64,000 nucleotides of DNA from Candidatus Omnitrophota bacterium (GTDB lineage Bacteria > Omnitrophota > Gorgyraeia > Zapsychrales > Zapsychraceae). A program made the position numbers and the translations under genes. Positions 4,576-29,200 of the stretch are shown piece after piece. The stretch lies in the NCBI GenBank assembly GCA_050250375.1, contig JBFWOS010000002.1, forward strand, positions 773,149 through 837,148, read 5' to 3'. The notes under the pieces are model-generated. The model made no database searches and was not told the origin of the DNA. It saw only the letters and a list, made by a program, of their open reading frames with translations. The first letter of the stretch is position 1, and every line of letters begins with the position of its first letter.

Positions 4576-6081
4576 TCAGGCGGCCAGGGGCAGGACAATC
4601 GTAAAGGTGGAGCCTTTGTTTAACTGACTTTCCACCTGAATGCTCCCGCGGTGGGCTTTGGCGACAGCCTGGGCGATATTTAAACCCAATCCGTTGCCTT
4701 TTTGAGCATCCTCGTCCCGGCTGGGGATCTGGAAAAACCGGGTAAAGATCAGGGAAAGATATTCTTCCGCCATCCCCGGCCCCTGATCGGCGACACTGAC
4801 TTTTAAGGAGTCTTCCGTCCTTACGGCATGGATGGTTATTTTCTTTCCGTCCGGGGTGAATTTGATGGCGTTATGGATGATATTTAAAAACAAACGACGT
4901 AAATGCAGGGAATCACCTTTGAGAAAAATATTTTCTTTGGGCAAAATATAGGTGATCTCGATATTCTTTTCTTCAGCGAGAATCTTTGTCTTATCAAAAA
5001 TTGTTTTAAGAAATTCTTTGCCGTCAAAACGTTCGAATTTCAGGAATTTGACGTGGTAGTCCAGTTTGGCTAAAAGCAGTAATTCCTCAATGATCTTGAT
5101 GATCTTTTCAATTTCTTCAAGGTTCTCTTTCAGGACATCTTTATAATCAGACGGACCCAGGTCTGTACGCAGGGCAACCTCGGTTTCCCCGCGTAAAATC
5201 GCCAGAGGAGTTTTCAACTCATGGGCCACTTGTGAACTGAACTGTTCAATATGTTTAAAAGAGTTTTCCAGCCGCGCGATCATGTCGTTAAAAGAATCCA
5301 CCAGGACTTTCATTTCTTCATCAATATTTTCCTGCCCGATTCTCCGGGACAAATCGCTGGAACTGATCTGGCGCGCTGTCAGGACGATGCTGTTGACCGG
5401 CCGTAAAATCCGGTCCGCCAGAAAACGCCCTAAAAATGCGGTCAGGATCAGAACAACCGGTATAATGACCATAAACATCCGCTGCCGGTAACTTAACAAT
5501 TCCAGAATGGGTGTTTCTGTGGAGGCAATGAGGACAAACACCGGATGCCCGGCCGGCAGTGAAATAACGGACTGGATTTTCCGGTAATAATTATGCCCGC
5601 TTTTGATCTCTCCAAAACTGTCTTCGCCGGAAGAAATATTGACGTCAGGCGTGAATTTCTTTATCAGATCATCAGGGATGTTCTGGGACGTGTAAATCAA
5701 CCGGCCCTCGGCATTAAAAAAAGCCACCATGTCCTGGCTTAAATCCAGCCGGTCAAAACGCATGAACCATTTCTCTTCTTCCGACAAAACCTCTCCCTCT
5801 GATTTTTTCTTTTTAACCGCCGCCATATCGGATTTGGGAGGGTACTGAAAGGAAAAAATCCGCTGAATGACCGCCGGGACATCCTCTCCGGATGAGGCGG
5901 ACAGCTCATCCGTGATAATGTTACCGAGCTCATCCACCTTGGCGGACAATTCTTCCTCCAGATCATTGATCAGATATTTTGAAAGACTGGTTTGAAGAAA
6001 GGCGCTGTACAGGATCAGGATAATGCCGAGAATGATCGTAAAGAGGTTTCCGATTTTGAATTTGATGGAATTAAATTTCAT
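4576..6081 (-). CDS. Sensor histidine kinase (two TM, periplasmic sensor, HisKA + HATPase_c), CusS-like
   Basis: H-box AHELKTPLAILRGETEVAL. N/G boxes NIIHNAIKFTPDG...DQGPGM...GNGLGLNIAQ. Its start overlaps the upstream response regulator stop by 4 bp. Confidence 0.85.
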   Translation of the reverse strand: MKFNSIKFKIGNLFTIILGIILILYSAFLQTSLSKYLINDLEEELSAKVDELGNIITDELSASSGEDVPAVIQRIFSFQYPPKSDMAAVKKKKSEGEVLSEEEKWFMRFDRLDLSQDMVAFFNAEGRLIYTSQNIPDDLIKKFTPDVNISSGEDSFGEIKSGHNYYRKIQSVISLPAGHPVFVLIASTETPILELLSYRQRMFMVIIPVVLILTAFLGRFLADRILRPVNSIVLTARQISSSDLSRRIGQENIDEEMKVLVDSFNDMIARLENSFKHIEQFSSQVAHELKTPLAILRGETEVALRTDLGPSDYKDVLKENLEEIEKIIKIIEELLLLAKLDYHVKFLKFERFDGKEFLKTIFDKTKILAEEKNIEITYILPKENIFLKGDSLHLRRLFLNIIHNAIKFTPDGKKITIHAVRTEDSLKVSVADQGPGMAEEYLSLIFTRFFQIPSRDEDAQKGNGLGLNIAQAVAKAHRGSIQVESQLNKGSTFTIVLPLAA

Positions 6082-6758
6082 GCCGGAGGTATTTTGTTTA
6101 ACATATAACCTGATCCGCGCAAGGTGTGGATCAACTGGGTTTTGAAGGTCCGGTCCATTTTCATCCGTAAATAACGGACATAAACATCAATGACATTCGT
6201 CAGGCTGTCGAAACTTTCATTCCAGACATGTTCGGAGATCATTGTGCGCGTGATGACCTGTTCCGGGCGGTGCATAAAATATTCAAGCAGTGCGTATTCT
6301 TTGGCGGAAAGGTTAATCTCCTGTCCGGCGCGCTTGACTTTATGCGTGACCTGATTGAGTTCAAGGTCTTCATATTTGAGGATGGTGGATTTATTGTCCT
6401 GTTTCCGCCTGAGGAGCGCGCGAACCCTTGCCAGGAATTCGTCAAAGATAAAAGGTTTGGTCAGGTAATCGTCTGCCCCCAGATCCAGGCCCGTAACCTT
6501 GTCTTCGGTCGCGTCCCGTGCCGTCAGCATGAGAATCGGCGTGGCCAGGCCCGTCTTTCTTAATTCCCGGCAGACATAAAACCCGTCTTTTCCCGGGAGC
6601 ATGACGTCAAGGATGATCAGATCGTATTCATTGATTTCAGCCGAATACAACGCCTTTTCGGCGTCCGTTACAACATCAACGGCATATTTTTCTTCTTTCA
6701 GGCCGCGCTGAATGAAGTTTGCCATTTTTCTTTGGTCTTCAACGATTAATATTCTCAT
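6078..6758 (-). CDS. OmpR-family response regulator (CusR/CopR-like)
   Basis: MRILIVEDQRK...DLIILDVMLPGKDG...LMLTARDATEDKVTGLDLGADDYLTKPF plus a winged-helix C-terminal domain. It closely matches the CusR pattern. Confidence 0.85.
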   Translation of the reverse strand: MRILIVEDQRKMANFIQRGLKEEKYAVDVVTDAEKALYSAEINEYDLIILDVMLPGKDGFYVCRELRKTGLATPILMLTARDATEDKVTGLDLGADDYLTKPFIFDEFLARVRALLRRKQDNKSTILKYEDLELNQVTHKVKRAGQEINLSAKEYALLEYFMHRPEQVITRTMISEHVWNESFDSLTNVIDVYVRYLRMKMDRTFKTQLIHTLRGSGYMLNKIPPA

Positions 6759-6898: not shown

Positions 6899-8692
6899 TT
6901 ACTGGGGTTCGGACATTCCCCAGGAATAATCGGTTTCCAGTAAAAGGACCGACTGGATAAACGCCATATGCGAATAACCCTGCGGAAAGTTTCCGGTCTG
7001 ACATTGGTTGACCGGGTCGTATCCTTCGGAAAATAATCCCAGTGGATTTGCCGTCACTAAGGCCCGGTTAAAAAATTCCCTGGCCTCATCTTTCCGGCCG
7101 ACCAGATAAAGGGCATTGACCATCCAGAAGCAGCACAGGATGAACGCATTTTCCGGTTTCCCGAAATCATCTTCTTTGGTGTAACGCATAATAAAACCGT
7201 CTTTAAACAATTCCCGGTGACAAAATTCAACGGTTTTGATCATGCGCGGATCATCAGGCCCTAGAAATCCGTAATGCAGCATTAACAATACCGCCGCGTC
7301 CGCCTGTGTTGAACCGTAATACATCGTAAAAGCCTCTTTCTCTTCATTCCAGCCTTTTTCCAGGATATCGTTTTTAATCACAGCGGCCTTCTGGAAACAG
7401 GAGTCGGCATATTTTGTCTTGCCAATCATTTTCGCGATACGCCCGGCCCGGTCCATCGCCACCCAGTTCATGAGTTTTGAAAAGACATGGTGCTGGGCTT
7501 CTCCCCGGTATTCCCAGATCCCGTTGTCCGGTTTGTCCCAGACATCCGCGGCGTTGTTGACCAGCGAACGGACCACGGTCCACAATTCCTGGTCGAACTG
7601 AAAACCCGAAACGGGATTCATCGTAAAGAACGTGTAAATCGCGTCGATCAATTCACCATACAAATCATTCTGGATCTGCACGTACGCCGCGTTACCGATC
7701 CGTACGGGTTTCGAATTCTTATAACCGGCCAGGGACGTAATTGTCTTTTCTTCGATGATCGTCTCCCCGTGAATGCTGTACATGACGGCGATGTTCTGGT
7801 GTTTGGAAAGCATGCGGTCCAGGACGAAATTCATGTACCGGGTCGACGCGTTAAAATGTCCCAGACGGGAAAACAACTCAATGATCATGGAGGCGTCCCT
7901 GATCCAGCAATACCGGTAGTCCCAGTTGCGTTCCTTACCGACCGTTTCCGGAAGTGATGTCGTCGGAGCAGCAATCACCGCCCCTGATCGGTGATTCATC
8001 AGGAGTTTTAATGTAATCATGGACCGGATGACCATCTCCCGGTAGGTCTCGGGCACTTTTGTCCGGTAGACCCAGCCCAGCCAATATCCTTTGGTGCGTT
8101 CAAACTCGACGTAATTCCGGTCTGAATCAAAGGCCCGGATTTTCTGATGATAAGACAAGACGAAATAACCGGATTCCGGCAGGGTCATCTCTTCTTCGTT
8201 CAGGATTTTTTTAAAATCCAGGTCCGTATACAGATAAAAACTGTGGTAGTCACCGGAATTGCTGATGTATTTGATGTATTCCGTTTCTTCAATGATATCA
8301 ACCGCAGAACCGGCGTAATTCGGACGGAGGTTGATCTGTATTTTGACCTTTGGTTTTCCCGAGATGACCCGGACATTCCGGTGGACTTCGGATGGACAAT
8401 AATAATGCTGGTTATCCATCAAAAACCGCGGCATAAAGTCATAAATGTCAAAAACTCCATCGGATGTTTCGACGCGGGTCTTCAGGATAGCTGTATGACG
8501 GACATATTGCTGGGTAATTCTGGTGGTATTGATCCCGGTTATTTTAAAGGACCCGCCTTTCTCATCATCAAGGATCTTCGCGCATAAAGAAGGCGAGTCA
8601 AAATACGGCATACACAGCCAGTCGATACTCGCCTCGGAAGAAACCAGCGCCGAACTGACGCAATTCCCGATTAAGCCATACGGATAACTCAT
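6899..8692 (-). CDS. Glycoside hydrolase family 15 protein (trehalase/glucoamylase-like)
   Basis: The N-terminus YGLIGNCVSSALVSSEASIDWLCMPYFDSPSLCAKILDDEKGGSF matches the conserved GH15/TreH N-terminal signature. 597 aa. The start overlaps the otsB stop (ATGA at 8689-8692). Confidence 0.75.
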   Translation of the reverse strand: MSYPYGLIGNCVSSALVSSEASIDWLCMPYFDSPSLCAKILDDEKGGSFKITGINTTRITQQYVRHTAILKTRVETSDGVFDIYDFMPRFLMDNQHYYCPSEVHRNVRVISGKPKVKIQINLRPNYAGSAVDIIEETEYIKYISNSGDYHSFYLYTDLDFKKILNEEEMTLPESGYFVLSYHQKIRAFDSDRNYVEFERTKGYWLGWVYRTKVPETYREMVIRSMITLKLLMNHRSGAVIAAPTTSLPETVGKERNWDYRYCWIRDASMIIELFSRLGHFNASTRYMNFVLDRMLSKHQNIAVMYSIHGETIIEEKTITSLAGYKNSKPVRIGNAAYVQIQNDLYGELIDAIYTFFTMNPVSGFQFDQELWTVVRSLVNNAADVWDKPDNGIWEYRGEAQHHVFSKLMNWVAMDRAGRIAKMIGKTKYADSCFQKAAVIKNDILEKGWNEEKEAFTMYYGSTQADAAVLLMLHYGFLGPDDPRMIKTVEFCHRELFKDGFIMRYTKEDDFGKPENAFILCCFWMVNALYLVGRKDEAREFFNRALVTANPLGLFSEGYDPVNQCQTGNFPQGYSHMAFIQSVLLLETDYSWGMSEPQ

Positions 8693-9504
8693 GCTGTTTT
8701 TTCCTTTCCCTTTGAGAGTGTTTCTGAAATCTGTTTTAAGAAGGAACCCATTTCATTCTGCGCTTTCAGGTAATATTGGGCCGCTGAACCTTCGGGATCG
8801 CCGATCTTGACCGTCAGGCCCAGATTGCCGATCGCCCGGAAGGCGTCTTCATCCGTCACGTCATCGCCGGCATACATAATGAGCATCTTTTCTTTATTCA
8901 CTTTTTTCTGCCATTTGGCGCTCAGCCATAAAACCGCGTCGCCTTTGTTCCATTGCACCGGTGGACGCACCTCGATCACTTTTTTCCCTTCCAGGACATT
9001 AATCCTTTGGCTGTTCAAATAACTCCGGCAGACGTCCATGAATATCTTTTTGGCCAGGACCGCTTCCGTGTAGTCGCTCAAACGGTAATGGACTGTAAGG
9101 ACCATTTTTTTATCTTCGACCAATATGCCTTTGAGAGCCGCCAGTTGTTCGGTCAGGAGAGCTTTGATGTCCGATAAATCCTCCATATAGTCGCCGGAAA
9201 CAAGTTGCCGTGTGTCCATTTCCGGATCGTCCATTTCAAGGCCGTGCGTTCCGACGTACGTGATGCCCGGAATATCGATTTTTTGTTTCAAATCAGCCAG
9301 CATCCGCCCGCTGACAGCGGTCAGATGACAGCCTGGGGATTTGGATAAAGTGATTAAGCTTTTCCTCACCGCTTGCGGCATGACGGCTGTTTCCGGTGTT
9401 TCGGCAATCGGCGCCAGGGTGCCGTCATAATCCAGAAAAAGGAATAACTGTTTATTGAGCAATTCCTTCTCAAATTTCTTCCATTCATCAAAAAAATATT
9501 TCAT
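8689..9504 (-). CDS. otsB: Trehalose-6-phosphate phosphatase (HAD family)
   Basis: It has HAD motif I (LFLDYDGTLAPI) and a late DD motif (YAGDDVTDEDAF). It sits in an operon with a GT20 synthase gene. Confidence 0.8.
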   Translation of the reverse strand: MKYFFDEWKKFEKELLNKQLFLFLDYDGTLAPIAETPETAVMPQAVRKSLITLSKSPGCHLTAVSGRMLADLKQKIDIPGITYVGTHGLEMDDPEMDTRQLVSGDYMEDLSDIKALLTEQLAALKGILVEDKKMVLTVHYRLSDYTEAVLAKKIFMDVCRSYLNSQRINVLEGKKVIEVRPPVQWNKGDAVLWLSAKWQKKVNKEKMLIMYAGDDVTDEDAFRAIGNLGLTVKIGDPEGSAAQYYLKAQNEMGSFLKQISETLSKGKEKTA

Positions 9505-9537: not shown

Positions 9538-11766
9538 TTATTCCTTTTTTAATGAAGACAATTCATTGATAATACTTCCGGCCCAGCGATACACGTTATT
9601 TTCCTTAATGCCTTCAAGCATCCGGTGCATGCGCTGCTGTTTTTCTTCGACCGGCATTTCAATGGCCAGGTTAATCGCGTCAGCGAATTCTTCGGTCGAA
9701 TACGGGTTGACGGAAATAGCGTCGGTTAATTCCCGAGAAGCGCCGGTAAAACAGCTGAGGATCAAGACCCCGTTTAAATCGGGTTTCGCCGTGACGAATT
9801 CTTTAGCCACCAGGTTCATACCGTCATGCAGGGAACTGACCACACAGACGTCAGCTAAGGCGTAAAACGGAAAAACCTCATCAATCGAAAAATAACGCTT
9901 TAAATAAATGATCGGATTCATCGCCCCGTTAGAGTGTTTCCAGTTAATCTTTTCAACCAGTTGATCAATCTGTCCGATCAGATCGTGATAATGTTTGATC
10001 AGCGTGCGGCTGGGCGCGCCCAACTGGATAAAAACAAATTTGTCTTTGTGCTGCGGATATTTTTCCAGAAACCGGTCAATGGCGTGCATACGTTCAATGA
10101 TCCCTTTGGTGTAATCAATCCGTTCAACCCCTAAAAAGATGATCTTGTCTTCCAGGTCATAATCTTTTTTTAATTGGGCGATCACTTCCGGAGTATTTTG
10201 GAATTTGGAAGGCATGAGCGGATCCACGCTGATCGGCAAGGCCCGGACAAAGGTCTCGTGGTTCGCCCGCACAACGCTGAATTTTTCTGAATCCACCCGT
10301 GATTCCAGGACACGGTTCGCTGTTTCCAGGAAATTATTGCAATGGAACTGGACGTGAAAACCGATCAGATCGCAGTTCAGCATCCCGTCCAGGATTTCTT
10401 TCTGGTAAGGACAGATCGAGAAAACTTCCGGGTTCGGCCAGGGGATATGCCAGAAAATCGCGATCATTGCATCAGGTCTTTTTTCTTTTATATATTTCGC
10501 CAAGAGGGTGAAATGATAATCCTGGATAAAAACGTAGGGTTTTTCCCTGGGCAATTCTTCCAGGATCGAATCGGCAAATTTTTTATTTACCTTTTTATAC
10601 ATCTGCCAGTCGGATTCCCGAAAGACCGGCCGGGTGTGGGTGATGTGGCATAAGGGCCACAATCCCTCATTTGAAAAACCGTAATAATATCCCTCCTCTT
10701 CCTCTTTGGATAACCAGACGCGTTTTAAAATGTACCGATTATCTTCCGGCGGAACACCTAACTTGTCCTTGGAGTTGACAAATTTTTTATCCGCATTTCC
10801 TGAACCCTGGGCGACCCAGGTTCCCCCGCACGCGCGCAGGATCGGGTCGAGCGCAGAGACAACACCGCTGGCCGGGCGGATGCATTGGATCTCCCCGCCC
10901 ACTTTGTCAACCACGTGCATATAAGGTTCACGGTTGGAGACGATGACCAGCGCGTTTTCGCCCATTTTGGCCTGGACAAGGTTGCTGAGTTTATCCTCGG
11001 TCCAGGCGTCTTCTTTTTGAAGGCGGGTCTGGGCTTCACGGGTTACCGTTTTTCGGGCGACGCGTAATTTTAAGGCCACCTGCTCGACTTCGCTGGCGAG
11101 TTTTCCCAACGCATCCCCGGCCACAAACGGCTGGAGTTTATCCGTCTCACCTTTCTGGAAACGATGGAACCAGACGGTCATTCGCTGGATCGGAAGAAAA
11201 AATGTCTGCCGGAGGATAACGGAAACAACAAGTATGATCAGGACCGTAAATATAATCAGACTGATGCAGATCCTTTTCCAAATCTCCATCAGCCGGGCAA
11301 ACACAAAGGATGTGTCGTTGATAATTTCAACGGCCCCCAGAATTTTGTGTCCATCGGTAATAGGCAGGATATAACTGTATAGTTTGAATTCAGCGAATTG
11401 TTTTAATGTTCCGCGGGACGTGTTGGACAGCAAAATTTCCCTGATGTAGGGAGTTTCGTTCTGGCGCCAATCAGCCAGCCATTGTGTGACCGCAAAGACT
11501 TCGCCTTCACTATTATAAATAATACATCCCTGCCGGCGTTCGCGATTCTGGAATTTCTCAACGAGATAGCGGGCGTCTGTATCATTGCGTGTCAGAAGGA
11601 TATTTTTGACGGATAGTTCCATTCCCTCCGCAACGGCCCTGGACTTCCGGTTTAGATCATCCAGCAACCGCTCTTCTTCGAACCTGACCTGGAAGAATCC
11701 GTAAGCGGAAAAAACAACCGTTGTGACAACTAAGATGGGGAAAATGAATAAAAAGAATTTTTTCAT
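9538..11766 (-). CDS. otsA: Trehalose-6-phosphate synthase (GT20) with an N-terminal two-TM periplasmic-sensor plus HAMP-like extension
   Basis: The first ~260 aa read TM1 (FLFIFPILVVTTVVFSAYGFF), a ~140-aa extracytoplasmic segment, TM2 (ISLIIFTVLIILVVSVIL), then a HAMP-like linker (...QPFVAGDALGKLASEVEQVALKL...). The C-terminal ~480 aa match OtsA (LVIVSNREPY..., IQDYHFTLLAKYI..., IFWHIPWPNPEVF..., DLIGFHVQFHCNNFL). The ORF is continuous over 742 aa. Confidence 0.8.
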   Translation of the reverse strand: MKKFFLFIFPILVVTTVVFSAYGFFQVRFEEERLLDDLNRKSRAVAEGMELSVKNILLTRNDTDARYLVEKFQNRERRQGCIIYNSEGEVFAVTQWLADWRQNETPYIREILLSNTSRGTLKQFAEFKLYSYILPITDGHKILGAVEIINDTSFVFARLMEIWKRICISLIIFTVLIILVVSVILRQTFFLPIQRMTVWFHRFQKGETDKLQPFVAGDALGKLASEVEQVALKLRVARKTVTREAQTRLQKEDAWTEDKLSNLVQAKMGENALVIVSNREPYMHVVDKVGGEIQCIRPASGVVSALDPILRACGGTWVAQGSGNADKKFVNSKDKLGVPPEDNRYILKRVWLSKEEEEGYYYGFSNEGLWPLCHITHTRPVFRESDWQMYKKVNKKFADSILEELPREKPYVFIQDYHFTLLAKYIKEKRPDAMIAIFWHIPWPNPEVFSICPYQKEILDGMLNCDLIGFHVQFHCNNFLETANRVLESRVDSEKFSVVRANHETFVRALPISVDPLMPSKFQNTPEVIAQLKKDYDLEDKIIFLGVERIDYTKGIIERMHAIDRFLEKYPQHKDKFVFIQLGAPSRTLIKHYHDLIGQIDQLVEKINWKHSNGAMNPIIYLKRYFSIDEVFPFYALADVCVVSSLHDGMNLVAKEFVTAKPDLNGVLILSCFTGASRELTDAISVNPYSTEEFADAINLAIEMPVEEKQQRMHRMLEGIKENNVYRWAGSIINELSSLKKE

Positions 11767-11876
11767 TTTGACTGCACTTTTTTTTGTTTTGAATATTAAG
11801 TTACGCGAAACTGTCAGCCCGGTTCTTCGGATGCGTATGGAGATTGATTAGACAGGCAGCGCCTTTTTAAAAGGCG

Positions 11877-12470
11877 TCAACCGCAGACAATACTTTTTTT
11901 ATAAAGGCCAAACATCTCTCCTAAACGGTTTTTCCCCAGGGGATACTTATAGTCGCTCAGACTCCAGATCGTGACCAGGGACTGGATCATGCCCAGAAAA
12001 GCGATGCTCGCGCAGTCAAGATTGATGCTGTTTCGTATTCCACCCGTTTTGATGCCTTCCTTCAAGATCAGTTTGATCATTTTTAAATATTTTGTCAGGA
12101 CCGCAAACATTTTTTTTTGAAGGATTTTGTCTTTTACACTGAGGGTTTTATTGATGACAATAAAAGACACCCCTTTTCGTTGTTCGGCGTATGAAAGATG
12201 GGACAAAAAAATATCTTCCAGTTTTTGCAAGGGTTCTTTTGAGCAGGATGCCGTTTTGTCGATGGAGGACAACAGGGTTGTTTCGATGTCATCAATCAGG
12301 AGGCTGAGAATTTCCGTTTTGCTTTTGAAATGCCGGTACAGGGCCCCATCGGTGATTTTCAGGTCTTTGGCGATTTCCCTGACGGTCAGATGTTCCATGC
12401 CTTTTTCAATAATAATCCGGCGCGCGCTGTCTACAATGGCCTGCTGCCGGACTGTCTTTTCTTCCCCCAC
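11877..12470 (-). CDS. TetR-family transcriptional regulator
   Basis: The N-terminal HTH reads HLTVREIAKDLKITDGALYRHFKSKTEIL. It uses a GTG start with GGAGG upstream. It lies immediately upstream of the otsA operon. Confidence 0.85.
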   Translation of the reverse strand: MGEEKTVRQQAIVDSARRIIIEKGMEHLTVREIAKDLKITDGALYRHFKSKTEILSLLIDDIETTLLSSIDKTASCSKEPLQKLEDIFLSHLSYAEQRKGVSFIVINKTLSVKDKILQKKMFAVLTKYLKMIKLILKEGIKTGGIRNSINLDCASIAFLGMIQSLVTIWSLSDYKYPLGKNRLGEMFGLYKKSIVCG

Positions 12471-12497
12471 AACTCAAACCTCCATAAAGATTAAAAA

Positions 12498-12513
12498 GTA
12501 AGCAATTGCTTAC
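12498..12513. promoter_or_regulatory. Perfect 16-bp palindrome GTAAGCAATTGCTTAC, a candidate TetR operator
   Basis: Read directly from the sequence. It sits 28 bp upstream of the TetR start and 100 bp downstream of the NhaP stop. TetR regulators typically bind palindromes overlapping their own promoter. Confidence 0.4.
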
Positions 12514-12614
12514 TAACGATTATAAGGGGGATGCCGGATTTGTCAAACCTTTTTAACGTTTGCCGGAAATGAATTTATGGAATTCGTCAGTACAGCGGGG
12601 AAATCGGGCCCAGT

Positions 12615-14393
12615 TTACGTCACAAGGAAAATGACTTTATGCCCTTTTTTAACGTGCAGTTTTTCGTCCATGGTATAAATCTTGAGTTCCTTTTTTTCGC
12701 TAATGGTAAAAAGAACGATGGCATCCTTTCCGTATTTAGCAAAAAACGTGCTTTCATTGAGGTCTTCCGGCGCGGTGATGGTCCTGAGCACATCGCTGCG
12801 GTTGAAACGTTCAGCCAGCTTATCGTAACTGGACTCTTTGTTAAAAAGATATCGTCCTCTTAATGACGGCGGAATGATGAGCGCCTGTGTCTGATTTTTT
12901 TGTCCTGGGAAAAGCTGGTACACTTCCGACCGCCCGAAGATGTCCCGAAAATGAAGGACGGCCAGTGAATTCGCTTCGTCATTGGCCGTCAGGGTGATCA
13001 GCCGGCCGATCCCGTCAAAGTCAATCGTCTCTTCGATATCCTGGTTCAATATATTGTCTTCATAACCCTGCAGGCCTTCCTCATGAACCAGGGCGACATT
13101 GATGGCATTGGTATCAATTAAGACGACCTTGATCCCTTCGTCATTTAAATATTTGGCGATGAGACGGGCCCACCGGTGAGCGCCGAGAATAAGAACCCCT
13201 TGAGGATTGTCGCGCGCCAGTCCCAGTTTTTTCGCCACCCAGGAAGAGGTCATCCCGTAGATGACAACGGTGGCAATAATGACCAGGAATGTGATCGGTA
13301 CAAGTTGTTCGGCCTGTTCAACGCCTTTCAGGGACAACTCAAACGCGAAGATGGAAACGATGGCGGCGGCCACGATCCCTCTGGGGGCCATCCAGGAAAT
13401 AAACAATTTCTCACGAAACGTAAGTTCGCTGCGGGCCATTGAAATGAATACCGACAGCGGCCGGGCGATAAAAACCAGGACAAACAGGAAGACAAAAAAT
13501 TCCCAATTAAGGATATTGAGTTCATTTAAATTTAACCGCGCTGCCAGGATAATAAACAGCGTTGAAATGATCAGGATACCCAGATTCTCCTTAAAACTGA
13601 CGATATGCTGAACTTCCACCTTGCGCTGATTTCCTAAAACGATCCCCATGCTGATGACGGCAAACAGGCCGCTTTCATGATGGAAGAGATTCGAAAGGAT
13701 AAAAACAGTCACGACCAGCATCAGGGTCACCGTGCCGTGCAGATAATCCGGGATCCAGTATTTGCGTAATAACAGCAGCAAAAACCAGGCCCCGACCGCT
13801 CCGGTCACTGATCCGATGAGAATACTTTTCAGGAAAAACAAAAGCGCGTTAATGCTTAACGCCTGGCCGAGAATGATGTACTCGAATACAAGCACTGCCA
13901 GGGCGGCGCCGATGGGATCAATCACGATCCCTTCCCATTTGAGGATGCTGCCGGCTTTGCCCGACGGACGGACATGCCTTAAGAGTGGAATGATGACTGT
14001 TGGCCCGGTGACCACCAGGATCGCGCCCAGGAGAAAAGAAATATTAAAATTCAGGCCCAGGATGTAACGTGCGGACAGCGTGATGATAATCCAGTTCACA
14101 AAGGCGCCGATGCTGACCAGGTTAAACACTTCTTTCCCGATTTTCTTTAACTCATACAAACGCAGCCCCAGGCCGCCTTCAAATAATATAATAGCAACGG
14201 AAATGGACACCAGAGGAAGCAATAACGGCCCCAGGACTTCATCCGGCCGGATGAGTTGTGTCACGGGTCCTACCAGAAAACCCAATCCCAGCAGGAGAAC
14301 AATCGAAGGCCATTTGAATCGCCAGGCCAGCCATTGGGCGCCAATCCCGACCACAAAAATACTGGCAATTCCTATAAGTAAATATTGATCCAT
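12615..14393 (-). CDS. NhaP-type (CPA1) Na+/H+ antiporter with a C-terminal RCK/TrkA_N-like regulatory domain
   Basis: 12-13 TM helices. MDQYLLIGIASIFVVGIGAQWLAWRFKWPSIVLLLGLGFLVGP is typical of NhaP. The C-terminal VLILGAHRWARLIAKYLNDEGIKVVLIDTN resembles an RCK nucleotide-binding domain. Confidence 0.8.
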   Translation of the reverse strand: MDQYLLIGIASIFVVGIGAQWLAWRFKWPSIVLLLGLGFLVGPVTQLIRPDEVLGPLLLPLVSISVAIILFEGGLGLRLYELKKIGKEVFNLVSIGAFVNWIIITLSARYILGLNFNISFLLGAILVVTGPTVIIPLLRHVRPSGKAGSILKWEGIVIDPIGAALAVLVFEYIILGQALSINALLFFLKSILIGSVTGAVGAWFLLLLLRKYWIPDYLHGTVTLMLVVTVFILSNLFHHESGLFAVISMGIVLGNQRKVEVQHIVSFKENLGILIISTLFIILAARLNLNELNILNWEFFVFLFVLVFIARPLSVFISMARSELTFREKLFISWMAPRGIVAAAIVSIFAFELSLKGVEQAEQLVPITFLVIIATVVIYGMTSSWVAKKLGLARDNPQGVLILGAHRWARLIAKYLNDEGIKVVLIDTNAINVALVHEEGLQGYEDNILNQDIEETIDFDGIGRLITLTANDEANSLAVLHFRDIFGRSEVYQLFPGQKNQTQALIIPPSLRGRYLFNKESSYDKLAERFNRSDVLRTITAPEDLNESTFFAKYGKDAIVLFTISEKKELKIYTMDEKLHVKKGHKVIFLVT

Positions 14394-23276: not shown

Positions 23277-26200
23277 TTAATCAACAATCATGACGGCACC
23301 CATAAGAGGTCCGAAGACCCAGTGCGGCGGGGCTTCCTCGGAGTCGGTGTTACCGGAATTAATCGAAGAAAAAGATTTGATATTATTGCTGGAGGTCTGC
23401 GAGTCCTGGACATCCAGGAAATAAGTTGATTGTATCCCGGAGACAACGTCAAACGTAAACCGGGTCCCGGCCATCGATGACCTTAAATACAACGGAATGA
23501 CATCGCTGAACCCTTGAAGATTCAGAGTGTTGTTTATTGTGACGGTTGAACTCTTTCCAAACGACAATGTTCTGGAAGGTCCCGATGAAAGTTGTTTGGA
23601 GAAATCATAAAATGTTTCTGAAGAATTCACGTTTTGGTCTGCACCATCCATCACTACATTTCCCGAATGCGGATCAAAGATCCCCCCATTATTATTCCAG
23701 TCCCCGGATACAGTGATCGGCTCGTTTGCGCCCGTATCCAGTTCCCCCGCGTTTAGAAATAATGTGCCGTTAATATCTAAAGCATCCTGGATTGTGTAAA
23801 TTGCCAGTGCCGTGGAGGGTTGTTCACCGTTCGCCAGGCGCTGGATTTCAGGAACACTGAGCACACGATTGTAAATCCGGAAATCATCAATCAAGCCGTC
23901 CCAGCCGGCTGCCGCATCTTTGCCCCCCTGTCCGATCCGTAGTTCAGTCGCCCCGGTCATTGTCCCGGACAAAGCCGCATCAGAATAAGTCGGCGTATCA
24001 AGATTTCCGTCTATATACAGCCGGATCGGGTTCCCGCTGCTCCAGGTCAAAGCCAGATGCTGCCAGTTGGTCGTCTGGACAAAACTGGCGCTTTCGTATT
24101 GGCGATTGACGCCGCTGACCTGTAAACCGCATTTAATGACATTTGTTCCGCCGCCGCTTGCGCCGGATAAATCATAACGAAGTGTAAAAATATTGTCTCC
24201 CCCGTTGGGTGGTTCACCGTTGAAGAACCCGTCGTCCACTCCGGTCGCGTCTGCTTTTACCCACAATGATACGGTAAATTCTGACAAACCATTGATATAA
24301 TTTTCTGCGTCGCTATCAATAATGTAATCCGTGGTCCCGTCAAATTGAAGGCTGGCCGGGTTATCAAAGTGGATCATCGCAGATGTCCCTGTATTGGGCG
24401 TTGTATTATTGACATAAATCATATCCCTTTGGAATCCGCTGCTGCCGTAAGCGGTCGTCCCGGTTGTTTCATCCATTTTCCAGTACGCGATCAGGCCGTC
24501 GTTGATGATCAGATGATGGAATGAACTCGTCCCCGATGTAATTGTCTGCGGATTCGTGGAAATAAATAAGACCGTCGAATCGGCGTTGGTAAATGTACCG
24601 CCGGTCATATCCCAGGAACCATCGACGATGATGGTTGAATTGCCGGCCGTCCCGGCGGTCGCATCCAGTGTGGAATCCAAATCAACGAGTCCGTTGATGG
24701 TCAAGTCATATCCATCGGTCTGAAATACACCGGCTAAAACCTCGAAATCACTGCCGAGGATCTCATCAGCCCCCATCATAAATGTTCCCCCCAAACCGTT
24801 AATGCGCAAGAACTGATACGTCCAGTCCTGAATGACGTGTGTGCCGGATGTCGCGGTATACTCGGCTCCGGAACCCGGATTAAAGACAGGTCCCGAATCC
24901 AGGGTAATGGTCTGGCTCCCGGCCAGCTGCAGAAGACCGTCCACCGTGATCGTTGACCCGGCATTGGTGGTAAAATCATACACGCCCCAGTCAAAGGTCG
25001 CCCCCGCGTCGATCGTGATCGTCCCATCGACAACCAGTCCGCTGGCCAGGATCACTTCGGCGGATGTATTGGAAATCTGTAAATCCCCGATCGATCCTCC
25101 GCCGGAGGTCAGCGTTTGGGTGACCGTGCCATCGGCGATCAGGAGAATGTCGTCTTCAATACTGCCGGCCCCGGATTTGTTGATGTCTCCGGAAACCGTG
25201 ATGGTGTGAATCTCGGTCCCGTCGGCCAGAAGATCGCTCCCTGAAGCATTACTCATGGACAGGTCCTGCTGGACGAGCAGGTCATCACTGACATGGATGT
25301 CATTGGCCGAAGTGCCGGCAAACCCTAAATTATAAAAGGTTGTCGGTCCGGTTATTGTAACCGGGTTGGCGGTGCTGTTAAACGTAACCGTCCCGTTGCG
25401 CGCGATAAATGTGTCTGCGTTGATCCAATTCCCGAATATAAAAGATGAATAATTATTCGTCGCATGGGAATCGAGCGTGCCATCCAGTAACGAAAGCGTC
25501 CCTCCTACGGTAAAGGTCCCGCCCAGTTCAATTGTATAATCCGCCCCGCCGTCCGCGTCATCAATCACAACATTATAAAAGGTGGACGATCCTAACGCGA
25601 CGGTCACTGTACCGGCTGTCCCGTCAAACGTAACGGTCGAAGTGCCGGGATCAAATGTCCCCAAACTGCTGGCGATCCAGTCACCGCTTACTGTCATGAG
25701 AACCTGGTTAGTTCCCGCATCCAACTCACCATCCGAAATATTAATGTTTCCGTTTATATCCTGGTCATATTGAAGAATAACATTGTCACTGCCCGGAACA
25801 CCGGTATTAAAAACAGCAAAGTTTTCAAACGGCTGGTTCAGATTATCGACCATCTGGTCTGAAGTTCCGTTAAAGGTTACGGTACTGCCGGTTTCATTAA
25901 ATGTACCGCTGCTTGAATTCCAATCCCCGGAAACAGTCATCGTTCCGGTCAATGTTAAGGTTCCGCCCAGATTAAAATGGTGGGTGACAATTCCTTCCGG
26001 AGAAACGGTAATGACGGAATTATTAGGAAGAATATTAAGCTCTTCATCGGTATAAGAACCGTCGGCATCGGCGATTAAGACGGTCCCGGACGTCACAAGA
26101 TACATAACGTCTTCGTCATCCGTGTTGTCATAGTGACCGATTTCAGTCAGAGTGAACGTCTGGTTGTCATCACTGCCGATGGTCAGGACATGCCGGTCAA

Positions 26201-29200
26201 GCACGACACCGCTGATATTCCCGGAGCCGTCATATTTGGTGACGCCTGAAGATTCATCGGCGGCAATGATATCTCCGTCTCCGTCTTCGGCCCACATGGT
26301 CAGACGATCACCGATTAAAATCGGAGCGTTATTAATCGTCCAGGCTCCGCTGGAAACGACGCCGGTCATGCCGACACATAAATTACCGTTGACCGCCAGA
26401 GCCACGATGGTGTTGTCGACCAGGTCAGACGTGCCCGATATATCAACCGTGGCGGCAGTATAACTGATGACCAGACGGCCGTTATTCCCGGCTGTCCCGG
26501 CGCCTGATGTAGCGCCGCCGGTTCCCCCTTGCCCCGCATTGCCGGCGTAATCCGTGTCGGTGTTATTCCCGGCGGCAGTACCGCTGCCGTCGGAGGTCGA
26601 GGTGGCCGTTCCGGAGACAAAAGATGAACCCCCTCCACCACCGCCGCCGCCGGCATTGCCCGCCTGCGACCCGCTGCCTCCGCCTCCACCGTAATAGCCG
26701 GACCCTCCTCCTCCTCCCGCACCGTAACCGCTGGCGTTGGCATCACCGGTCCCGCCGTCTCCGCCGTTGGTGGTCCCGCCGTTTCCGGCGGAACCGTCAG
26801 CGCCTTGTCCGGAACGTCCGTCCGCTCCTGCGCCGCCTGTATCCGCCGCGCCGGCTGAACCGCTGTTATTGCCGCCTGTTCCTCCGCTGCCTCCGGAGGA
26901 TTGGTCTGCTCCGCCGCCCCCTCCGGCATTGCCTGACGCGCTGCCGTTGACACCTGTTGTTCCGCCACCCGGACCGCCGGCTCCACCCGGGGTGGCTGAC
27001 GAATTGTCACCACCACCACCACCTCCTCCTCCAGCGGAGATAAGTAAAGGTGTGGATGCGCGAAAGACCGCTGTCCGCCCCCCTCCACCCGCGCCGTCCC
27101 CCGAAGCGTTTCCTGAACCGCCGGAACTGAATGCTCCTGCCCCGCCGGAGCCGCCGACATGGATATCTAATGTTTCCATGGGAGTAACCGCCAGGGTTGC
27201 CGTCGCAAAGGCCGCTCCGCTTCCGTCTCCACCGGTACCTACCGTCCCTCCACCCCCGCCGCCTCCGCCTCCGCCCCAGGCTTTAACGGTGATCTCCGTG
27301 ACACCTTTGGGCACCACAAACGTATCCGATCCGGCGACCGTAAAAACTTGTGTTCCAAAACCATCCGGTAGTGGAAAAATCCAGAATGGAGAAGCCGTTA
27401 AATCGTCATTTCCTCCGTCATTCACGGAGTTTCTTGCCGTGATGTCATTGTTCAAGGCGTTGGAGTTGGCCACTTTGACAAATTCAACAATCTGGTCCCC
27501 GCCCGTTACACTCAAGCTGAACTGTGTTGACCCGTCGATGCTGTCAAGTTCGACTTCATTATTGATTTCACCGACCAGATTCAGGCTTCCCGTTACGGTA
27601 AAGGTGGTCGATTGTTGAAACTCCATTTTGGCTGAAAGGGTGGTACTGACCAGGTCCGCCGTTGTGAACGATTCGGTAAATTGCACCCCGAACGCGGATG
27701 AATTCGTTACTTCGATAATATTATATGTTTCTGAATTGCTGGCGACCGTTTGTAATCCTGTCCCGTCAAATTCAACCGTTGAGCTGGTTACCGTAAACGT
27801 ATCAAGGTTGGCCAGGTCAAGATCACCCCCCAGAAAAACAGTGTCGTTACTGATGTTGAACGTCGTGGCCCCGCCGTTATTGACCGTAAGACTTCCGTTG
27901 ATATCCAGATCGTCCGCTGTGCTGAGAACTCCGCCGGTAACGGACGATCCGATTTGGATATTGTTAAACGCTCCGCCTGAACTGGTCAGCGATGATGTTC
28001 CGTCAAACACAACGGTCGAATTCGTATTGATAAAATTCCCCCCGGTCATATCCCAATCCCCGGACACATTAAGGGTGGAATTCCCATCGGCGCCGCTCTG
28101 CGCGTCCAATGTTCCGTTCAAGGTCAACCCGCCGTTGATGTCAACTTCATATCCGCCTGTGATTAGATTGTCACCTGTATCAATCGTCAAGGTGTTGCTT
28201 AAGAAGTCCGAGGACAAGTTTACGGCGTTATTGGGGGAACGGCTGATCAGAACATTCCCCAAATTTGTCCCGCCGTCCACGTTTAAATCCAGAATCCCGT
28301 CCAGCAGTACCGTTCCGGCGCCGGCTGTGAATGTACCGCCGGTCTTGATGATATTGCCGGCGATATTAATATCGGTGTTATTGGCGCCCAGATTGATCGT
28401 TCCGTCGTTCATGTTTAACGGCCCGTCAATGTCGATCAGGATTGAGGAGTTGGGGGTAATCGTTCCGGTGTATCCGGATTCGATCAGGATACCTCCGACA
28501 TTAAACGCGGCGTTGACAGTCGCGTTATTTGTACAGCTGTTGGAAAAAACGACATTATGGGTTGTATTCGGGACAGAGGCCCCACCGCCGACACCGCAGG
28601 AATTTTCAGAAGCCGACCAGTTGGCCGCAGAATTTGTATTCCCTCCGGCCGAACCGACCCAATACCGGTTGACGGCAAAGATCCAATGCGGTGAGGCTTC
28701 GGCGTTATCGTTCCCGCCGTTATTGTTCGAAGACAAGGCCGTAATATCGTTTGAAGAAGCTTGTGAATCCATGATATTTAAAAAACTGACCGTTTGGCTG
28801 GATCCGGTCACATCAAACGTGAACCTTACTCCAGAAGAATTGCTTTGAAGGACCAGACGGTCATCGTCATCCAGCCCCGTCAGATTTAAAGTATTGGTGA
28901 TGGTCTGGGTTGAGGAGGCGGCAATGGTCAGAGTGGTGTTTGAACTGTTGTCGGTGGATTCAATCTTGGTCAGATTGCGGAAGGTAGTTGATCCCGTAAT
29001 ACTCTGGTTATCGCCATCGAGGATGACCGTTGATACGCCGGATCCCGCAGCCAGGGAACCCGAAGCGCCCATCAGCCAGTTTCCCGCGAGATTTATGTTG
29101 ACGTTATTGGTTCCCGAATCAAGATTACCGTCTGTAATCGTCAGCGTTCCGTTGATGTCCAGGGCATCAGACAAAATAATGTCATCATTTCCGGATGACC

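Follow-up and report, generated by a model that had tools for sequence, protein, structure and literature searches.

In most accounts, bacteria control the synthesis of compatible solutes through transcription or through direct ion effects on soluble enzymes. Among the matches listed, the solved and characterised catalytic chains of the trehalose-6-phosphate (T6P) synthases OtsA and Tps1 (E. coli 1gz5/1uqt, M. thermoresistibile 5jij, fungal Tps1) are soluble, and none carries a transmembrane (TM) sensor followed by a HAMP domain. Input modules of the latter kind are found in other proteins. WalK (YycG) and related Cache/PAS-HAMP kinases couple them to a phosphorelay. YfiN/DgcN-type proteins and other HAMP receptor enzymes, with GGDEF or adenylyl cyclase domains, join periplasmic sensor, HAMP and catalytic domain in one chain, and the known outputs of such systems are second messengers or protein phosphorylation. 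LapD is laid out as TM helix, PAS-like domain, TM helix and HAMP. Here, we describe a gene of a Candidatus Omnitrophota bacterium in which a sensor-HAMP module precedes a complete OtsA-type enzyme. The gene lies in a stretch of 64,000 nucleotides, referred to as the window, that corresponds to positions 773,149 to 837,148 of contig JBFWOS010000002.1 (GenBank assembly GCA_050250375.1); all coordinates are those of the window.

The fusion gene occupies 9538..11766 on the minus strand and is a single open reading frame (ORF) with an ATG start that encodes 742 amino acids. The encoded protein consists of TM1 (amino acids 4–25), a PAS/Cache-like domain (26–163), TM2 (164–187), HAMP (188–238), a linker (239–272) and a catalytic domain of glycosyltransferase family GT20 (273–737). 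This architecture is conserved among homologues, the active site is intact and the gene has an OtsB partner. E. coli OtsA (MG1655) is 474 amino acids in length and begins right at the conserved VVSNR strand without an N-terminal extension, which indicates that the ~270-residue extension of the window protein is real. M1 and the adjoining MKRILLFILPIL-type sequence are kept in homologues, which supports the annotated start codon. The public records agree on one gene: P0029, a database entry with 100% identity to the protein of the window, bears the name 'MAG: trehalose-6-phosphate synthase [Candidatus Omnitrophota bacterium]', and in the Candidatus Omnitrophota metagenome-assembled genome (MAG) GCA_050181705.1 (JBFXCX010000001.1) the fusion is called as one 742-amino-acid gene, "trehalose-6-phosphate synthase".

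The original prediction, made from the DNA alone, had proposed this architecture (TM1, an extracytoplasmic sensor of ~140 amino acids, TM2, HAMP and OtsA) and had named a frameshift or assembly error that conceals two genes as one outcome that would overturn it. The locus survey drew on a scan with a single genome for each GTDB species; relatives of the N-terminal 270 amino acids are encoded in 279 of them, and the best 80 were taken. In 77 of these 80 loci, all from different genomes, a single ORF contains both the N-terminal module and GT20, and the fusion is thus not an assembly artefact. Two of the exceptions (L045 and L063) end at a contig edge before any GT20 sequence, and the third (L046) is interrupted. 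The single-gene reading holds, and the predicted architecture is borne out by hydropathy, AlphaFold, Foldseek, Pfam matches of orthologues and kinase relatives of the N-terminal module. As a separate observation, the database copies P0020, P0025 and L046 are broken near the HAMP-GT20 junction or in the N-terminal region, which may reflect sequencing frameshifts or pseudogenes.

The GT20 domain (9556..10950, minus strand) was identified by Pfam, by comparison with the Protein Data Bank (PDB) and by Foldseek. PF00982 matches with E=9e-123 and 410.9 bits (cut-off 32.5), and positions 3–472 of the 473 in the profile are covered. The closest PDB entry by sequence is M. thermoresistibile OtsA 5jij (E=3e-77), and the matches include fungal Tps1 and E. 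coli OtsA (E=2e-65). The C-terminal 470 amino acids have the fold of these enzymes at 27–33% identity. A full-length AlphaFold2 model (pLDDT 81.8) gave Foldseek target TM-scores of 0.84–0.89 against solved OtsA/Tps1 structures. None of the matched structures spans the N-terminal 270 amino acids, and the window protein differs from these enzymes in having about 270 additional residues that are predicted to place it in the membrane.

Eleven catalytic and substrate-binding residues of OtsA, in the mature numbering of the OtsA structure papers, were checked. R279, G301, Y361, W370, D416 and H440 of the window protein correspond to E. coli R9, G22, Y76, W85, D130 and H154, while R549, K554, R587, D648 and E656 correspond to R262, K267, R300, D361 and E369. 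All eleven are invariant in 70 homologues. Thus the window protein has in common with OtsA/Tps1 every catalytic residue checked as well as an OtsB partner, and differs in the glycine-rich GGL loop, which reads A-S-G-V-V at amino acids 299–303 (window ~10858–10872). S300 replaces E. coli G21, the first glycine of the motif, and the change is kept in the 70 aligned homologues. The protein misses the cut-offs of the NCBIfam OtsA equivalogs (TIGR02400, 418.4 vs 564.85 bits; PRK14501, 464.6 vs 634) and scores 319 bits with the NCBIfam GgpS model. That the GT20 domain makes T6P is suggested by the families that match best, by conservation of residues at the acceptor site and by the neighbouring trehalose-phosphatase gene.

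Kyte-Doolittle hydropathy (19-residue window, threshold 1.6) rises above 1.6 in just two segments, amino acids ~4–25 and ~164–187, and the ~138 residues between them agree with the predicted periplasmic segment. TM1 (11692..11757, minus strand) was defined by hydropathy windows that start at amino acids 1–9; its N-terminus is inside, with MKK preceding the hydrophobic core. The segment may instead be a cleavable signal peptide rather than a retained TM helix. TM2 (11206..11277, minus strand) has a hydropathy peak of 3.3. The positive-inside rule, with MKK before TM1 and R186/R195 after TM2, places the GT20 domain in the cytoplasm, the site of its substrates.

The sensor was modelled with AlphaFold2 as amino acids 1–270, using an alignment of 70 sequences (mean pLDDT 82); this and all other structure predictions were monomer models. 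The chain begins with a helix at 2–59, in which TM1 extends outside the membrane, followed by a helix at 62–75 and strands at 79–84 and 90–93. Two short helices (95–102 and 107–114) lead into strands 118–124, 127–138 and 141–151. A long helix (153–204) then carries TM2 into the cytoplasm and the first HAMP helix, and is followed by coil (205–218) and a helix at 219–267. The extracytoplasmic region (amino acids ~26–163; 11278..11691, minus strand) is accordingly modelled as a PDC fold, in which a long N-terminal helix and a five-stranded antiparallel sheet with two short helices are flanked by the two TM helices. AlphaFold2, Foldseek and the Pfam matches of orthologues assign it as a PAS/Cache-like sensor of the sCache_3_2 or CHASE8-like type.

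Despite a sequence identity of only 14–17%, the N-terminal 250 amino acids share both layout and fold with WalK. The top Foldseek match of the N-terminal model in the PDB is 9a5d, a model of WalK in full length (E=2e-10 over 248 aligned columns). With 4ywz, the extracellular domain of WalK, the TM-score is 0.74–0.75 and the root-mean-square deviation (RMSD) 2.7–2.9, and the WalK/YycG extracellular domains 4ywz, 5is1 and 7dud as a group give target TM-scores of 0.65–0.75 with RMSDs of 2.7–4.5. Sensor domains of WalK, CitA, DcuS, DctB and Tlp3 are matched at E values of 1e-4 to 1e-7. At the level of sequence, the NCBIfam WalK model (positions 12–258) aligns with amino acids 8–246 (E=4e-11, 42.1 bits; the whole-protein cut-off is 725). 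Among 70 orthologues, Pfam (E<=0.01) finds sCache_3_2 in 53 (best 4e-7), dCache_3 in 25 and CHASE8 in 15. The N-terminus is 47–61% identical across the 80 species-level genomes and contains about a dozen invariant periplasmic residues, which points to selection on this part of the protein.

The HAMP domain (amino acids ~188–238; 11053..11205, minus strand) was delineated by motif spacing, orthologues and the model. It comprises a first helix (AS1, 192–204), a connector (205–218) and a second helix (AS2, 219–238). P192, which lies just after TM2, and G206 are invariant and 14 residues apart; the HAMP domain of Af1503 has the same Pro-Gly spacing. The connector contains the conserved residues P213 and F214, and both helices display hydrophobic a/d periodicity. 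The start of the second helix is marked by a conserved D/E-x-L-G-K-L-x-x-E-V-E-Q sequence, with (G)ELGKL or DALGKL at amino acids 218–223. The motif DALGKLASEVEQ, which the original prediction had singled out in the linker following TM2, falls at amino acids 218–229, inside this helix. Pfam HAMP matches 26 of the 70 orthologues at E<=0.01 (best 9.4e-6), including one that is 68% identical over the full length (P0039; amino acids 190–236, 26.3 bits vs a cut-off of 25). The family profile gives weak matches (E~0.7–0.9) to the Af1503 HAMP structures 2l7i and 2y0t. Because the window protein itself misses the Pfam thresholds, it is orthologues, motif spacing and the model that support its HAMP and Cache domains. 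Profile searches of the N-terminal region, which had been proposed as a check, thus identified HAMP and Cache through orthologues and failed to do so on the window protein.

HAMP is joined to the enzyme by a helical linker of fixed length (amino acids 239–272; 10951..11052, minus strand), as defined by the homologue alignment and AlphaFold2, in which W255-T256, L260 and A266 are invariant. The junction is the best-conserved stretch of the N-terminal half. Of the 175 sequences that span the junction, 173 have the W-T motif 22 residues ahead of the serine of SNREP. The AS2 glutamate precedes this serine by 51 residues in 145 sequences and by 50 in another 4, the motif search having failed in 26. 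The fixed spacing includes members from Acidobacteriota and Methylomirabilota with N-termini less than 40% identical to that of the window protein. The full-length model shows a helix at 219–251, a break at 252–256 and a helix at 257–267, followed by the first GT20 strand (LFVVSNREP).

This invariant distance between HAMP and the first catalytic strand, which extends even to distant clades, leads us to read the junction, the most telling feature of the protein, as evidence for mechanical coupling of HAMP to GT20. A mere tether would be expected to tolerate changes in length, while a linker of fixed length fits a device that passes rotation or shift of a coiled coil in register. The strand to which the linker is attached carries R279, the counterpart of E. 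coli R9, which binds the phosphate of glucose-6-phosphate. It is tempting to speculate that helix movement would act directly, through this strand, on the binding of the acceptor or on closure of the lobes.

The family to which the fusion belongs is large. The architecture survey was based on a full-length search together with an exhaustive profile search. These replaced a word-index search with the N-terminal 271 amino acids alone, which had returned 28 matches, most of them short proteins and many labelled partial. Of 8000 matches that the full-length search scored, the best 120 are listed; nearly all of these homologues are 741–748 amino acids in length, with 64–76% identity and 97–100% coverage. 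A search seeded from Acidobacteriota listed at least 120 further fusions, mostly of 750–765 amino acids, and every organism-named match listed in that search for a cultured host was a MAG. Among the matches listed there are thus more than 240 near-full-length homologues (~745–760 amino acids) from Omnitrophota, Acidobacteriota and other phyla. Clusters at 90% identity number in the hundreds in Omnitrophota and Acidobacteriota. Two peptide patterns identified carriers in 279 of 185,579 GTDB species genomes; the best 80 of these are mostly Omnitrophota MAGs, with other labels being Elusimicrobiota, Spirochaetes, Nitrospirae, Syntrophales/Syntrophobacterales and several automatically assigned to Planctomycetia.

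The exhaustive search compared the N-terminal profile with 1.84 billion representatives and yielded 981 matches, among which are divergent GT20 fusions from Acidobacteriota and Methylomirabilota. Of the 28 long representatives found with the N-terminal profile, half are GT20 fusions (14), while histidine kinases account for 6 and diguanylate cyclases for 2. P0169 and P0172 are relatives of the module with GGDEF output. The kinases P0224, P0251 and P0270 match profile positions ~7–253 and have a HAMP domain at amino acids 186–237 (50–58 bits) followed by HisKA and HATPase_c. The module has therefore been recombined in evolution with kinase and GGDEF outputs, which argues that it is a genuine signalling input. 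One GT20 fusion (P0166, 913 amino acids) has ~160 extra N-terminal residues, with the module at amino acids 181–414 and GT20 at 433–900.

The fusion can be compared with several described receptors. Its closest relatives without GT20 are HAMP histidine kinases of the Cache/PAS-HAMP, WalK-like layout and diguanylate cyclases. However, Pfam detects neither HisKA nor HATPase in the window protein, and GT20 fills the whole C-terminal part; the protein can thus not be counted among the histidine kinases, despite an input half that resembles theirs, and its output is a metabolic glycosyltransferase without a phosphorelay. The logic of YfiN/DgcN-type and other HAMP receptor enzymes is the same, and the NCBIfam DgcN/YfiN model weakly matches the window protein; CHASE8, found in some orthologues, is the family of the YfiN periplasmic domain. 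In contrast to these enzymes, the fusion would directly make a bulk metabolite or the precursor of a compatible solute, without an intervening cascade. With LapD and its orthologue CdgS9 it shares the layout of TM helix, PAS-like periplasmic domain, TM helix and HAMP. Unlike LapD, the window protein has no Pfam match to GGDEF or EAL, and its cytoplasmic domain is an intact enzyme.

The genes around the fusion point to trehalose metabolism. The gene for T6P phosphatase, otsB (8689..9504, minus strand), lies 33 nucleotides downstream and matches Trehalose_PPase with E=1e-44 and TIGR00685 with 164.7 bits (cut-off 68). It is followed by a gene (6899..8692, minus strand) for a trehalase-like (TreH-like) protein of family GH15, which matches Glyco_hydro_15 (E=9e-68) and TREH_N (E=2.5e-16) and scores 413.9 bits against the NCBIfam archaeal trehalase TreH1, under the cut-off of 820. 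The start of the GH15 gene overlaps the otsB stop by 4 nucleotides, so that the two are apparently translationally coupled. Judging from the sequence, synthase, phosphatase and GH15 protein appear to share an operon. The presence of trehalose-making and trehalose-consuming enzymes in one cluster therefore provides a rationale for control at the level of the enzyme.

Within the 80 related loci, otsB is found downstream in 60, directly after the fusion gene in most. A DUF5752 protein is encoded in 57 loci and a TreT-like trehalose synthase of family GT4 in 55, both after the fusion gene and otsB (for example, L058:8963-9655 and L039:9652-10875). DUF5752 looks like a trehalose-cluster protein. 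A gene for an MscS-type channel lies directly upstream on the same strand in 27 of the 80 loci (for example, L071:4876-5952). The window contains no second GT20 gene and no TreT, DUF5752 or MscS gene.

A TetR-family regulator (11877..12470, minus strand; TetR_N E=1e-14, TetR_C_4 E=3e-12) is encoded 110 nucleotides upstream of the fusion gene, and a Na+/H+ exchanger fused to an RCK-type TrkA_N domain (12615-14393, minus strand; domain match) lies upstream of tetR. Neither of these genes nor a GH15 gene was found as a neighbour in the 80 related loci at E<=1e-10, and all three are thus specific to this genome. The nearby genes for MscS, in related loci, and for the exchanger are a hint of an osmotic role. 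Upstream of tetR, pattern matching located a sigma-70-like consensus, TTGACA-16-TATAAT, followed by a perfect 18-bp palindrome, AGTAAGCAATTGCTTACT (12497..12546, minus strand). Promoter-like sites are as numerous in the region as expected from shuffled sequence, but this is the sole site that matches at 12/12 positions. On sequence grounds it is a candidate promoter/operator for an autoregulated TetR and may also drive otsA-otsB-GH15. The stretch that separates tetR from the fusion gene (11767-11876, minus strand) opens with an AT-centred hairpin, CGCCTTTTAAAAAGGCG; inspection of these nucleotides revealed no obvious Shine-Dalgarno sequence ahead of the otsA start.

Downstream of the trehalose genes lie those for an OmpR-type response regulator (6078-6758, minus strand) and a HAMP-HisKA-HATPase histidine kinase (4576-6081, minus strand). 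The idea that the N-terminal module of the fusion had been copied from this HAMP kinase, 3.5 kb away, was rejected, as the two have no similarity. The window also contains a very long ORF of 2504 amino acids with a TTG start (23277-30791, minus strand).

We consider it probable that the protein is a dimeric receptor-enzyme whose T6P synthase activity is modulated by its periplasmic Cache domain together with HAMP. The model envisions a dimeric protein of the inner membrane whose periplasmic single-Cache domain, held between two TM helices, would feed the cytoplasmic HAMP domain, with the second HAMP helix leading through the 34-residue linker of invariant length to the first β-strand of the intact GT20 domain. 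An outside ligand, or the envelope or osmotic state, would cause rotation or shift of the HAMP helices. This movement would reposition the two GT20 N-lobes, or the strand that carries R279, and T6P synthesis would rise or fall without transcription. OtsB would then convert the product to trehalose, and control of the synthase would decide whether trehalose accumulates or is cycled by synthase, phosphatase and GH15 acting together. For the wider proposal, namely that HAMP signalling directly gates a metabolic GT-B glycosyltransferase, that trehalose is controlled independently of transcription and that this is the main form of OtsA in Omnitrophota and a common one in Acidobacteriota, we lean only slightly in favour.

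Several observations count against this model. Regulation of GT20 activity by the sensor is something we infer from the architecture. To our knowledge, HAMP control of a GT-B glycosyltransferase has no precedent, and the coupling step is therefore put forward as a conjecture. The structural models are monomeric, and the HAMP four-helix bundle and a dimeric GT20 lie outside their scope. Pfam HAMP does not match amino acids 1–271 at E<=10 or the full protein at E<=1, and the sole Pfam Cache match of the window protein is to dCache_3 (16.4 bits, E=0.007, under the cut-off of 25.7). The operon from tetR to the GH15 gene is deduced from strand and spacing, and the link to osmolarity, which the original prediction had named as a possible signal, draws on genes that are neighbours in a minority of loci, MscS being present in 27 of 80.

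A rival explanation is that the module is a membrane anchor or scaffold that tethers and dimerises a constitutively active OtsA at the inner membrane and passes no signal; trehalose could in this way be made close to the membrane or to a transporter, for instance. OtsA enzymes act as soluble oligomers, so that dimerisation alone could be of benefit, and the HAMP domain of the window protein is divergent enough to be missed by Pfam. An anchor, however, has no need of a conserved, folded periplasmic domain of ~138 amino acids with invariant polar residues, nor of HAMP, nor of a linker that keeps its exact number of residues from phylum to phylum, and in relatives the same module drives kinases and diguanylate cyclases. 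We regard a purely anchoring role as rather unlikely. The direction of signalling could also be reversed, as in LapD. In that case the state of sugar nucleotides or T6P in the cytoplasm would be read by GT20 and passed outward by HAMP, and the periplasmic domain would bind or let go of a partner in the periplasm. The family profile does weakly match the periplasmic output domain of the LapD orthologue CdgS9 (4u64, E=0.006; Foldseek rank 45), but WalK, CitA and DcuS fit far better (TM-scores of 0.72–0.76 and RMSDs of ~2.7–3 vs an RMSD of 10.2 for 4u64). Moreover, LapD has degenerate cytoplasmic domains, whereas GT20 retains a fully intact active site, and the neighbours in the 80 related loci include no conserved gene for a periplasmic partner. 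Inside-out signalling of this type is very improbable.

Orthogonal to these explanations is the question of the product, since the GT20 domain could make a compound other than T6P, such as glucosylglycerol-phosphate or another sugar-phosphate, which would turn the protein into a receptor-coupled enzyme for the synthesis of some other solute. The missed OtsA equivalog cut-offs, the score with GgpS and the serine at the first glycine of the GGL motif are in line with this. Yet the best-scoring models and all top PDB matches are T6P synthases, and the residues that bind glucose-6-phosphate are conserved. In addition, a trehalose-phosphatase gene follows in most related loci and in the window, where it is itself followed by the GH15 trehalase-like gene. 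A different product is accordingly improbable. The few database entries that are split or frameshifted at the junction might raise the suspicion that a sensor gene and an independent otsA were merged through misassembly, read-through or a frameshift. This is refuted by the single ORF kept in 77 of 80 loci and in the more than 240 listed proteins, which have 97–100% coverage, and by the junction sequence itself, the most conserved part of the N-terminal half.

The receptor-enzyme model that we prefer concerns a family that is abundant in databases. There, it is annotated automatically as "trehalose-6-phosphate synthase", and a few members have been named 'trehalose-6-phosphate synthase/HAMP domain-containing protein' by JGI. 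The claim that the architecture is uncharacterised stands in the sense that no paper describing it was found, and needs to be tempered by this abundance and by the automatic names. Literature searches that combined HAMP, TM, Cache or output domain with T6P synthase, OtsA or glycosyltransferase, and that had most subscription journals outside their scope, returned no description of the fusion. An article on Omnitrophota MAGs goes no further than to note that they encode trehalose synthesis (PMC8542988).

Both halves of the protein come from well-known families, and their combination suggests a widespread and uncharacterised HAMP-coupled receptor with an unprecedented output, a metabolic glycosyltransferase. 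If the model is correct, a biosynthetic enzyme that serves as the output of a receptor would constitute a short-circuit between sensing and metabolism. It would represent a new output class for bacterial receptors and would widen the targets of HAMP beyond kinases, cyclases, phosphatases and chemoreceptors. The fixed linker makes the family an attractive system in which to study how a non-signalling enzyme reads HAMP motions, and the modular design suggests that ligand-controlled glycosyltransferases could be engineered. Given the size of the family, the mechanism would bear on osmotic and desiccation stress in abundant uncultured bacteria of aquatic and soil habitats.

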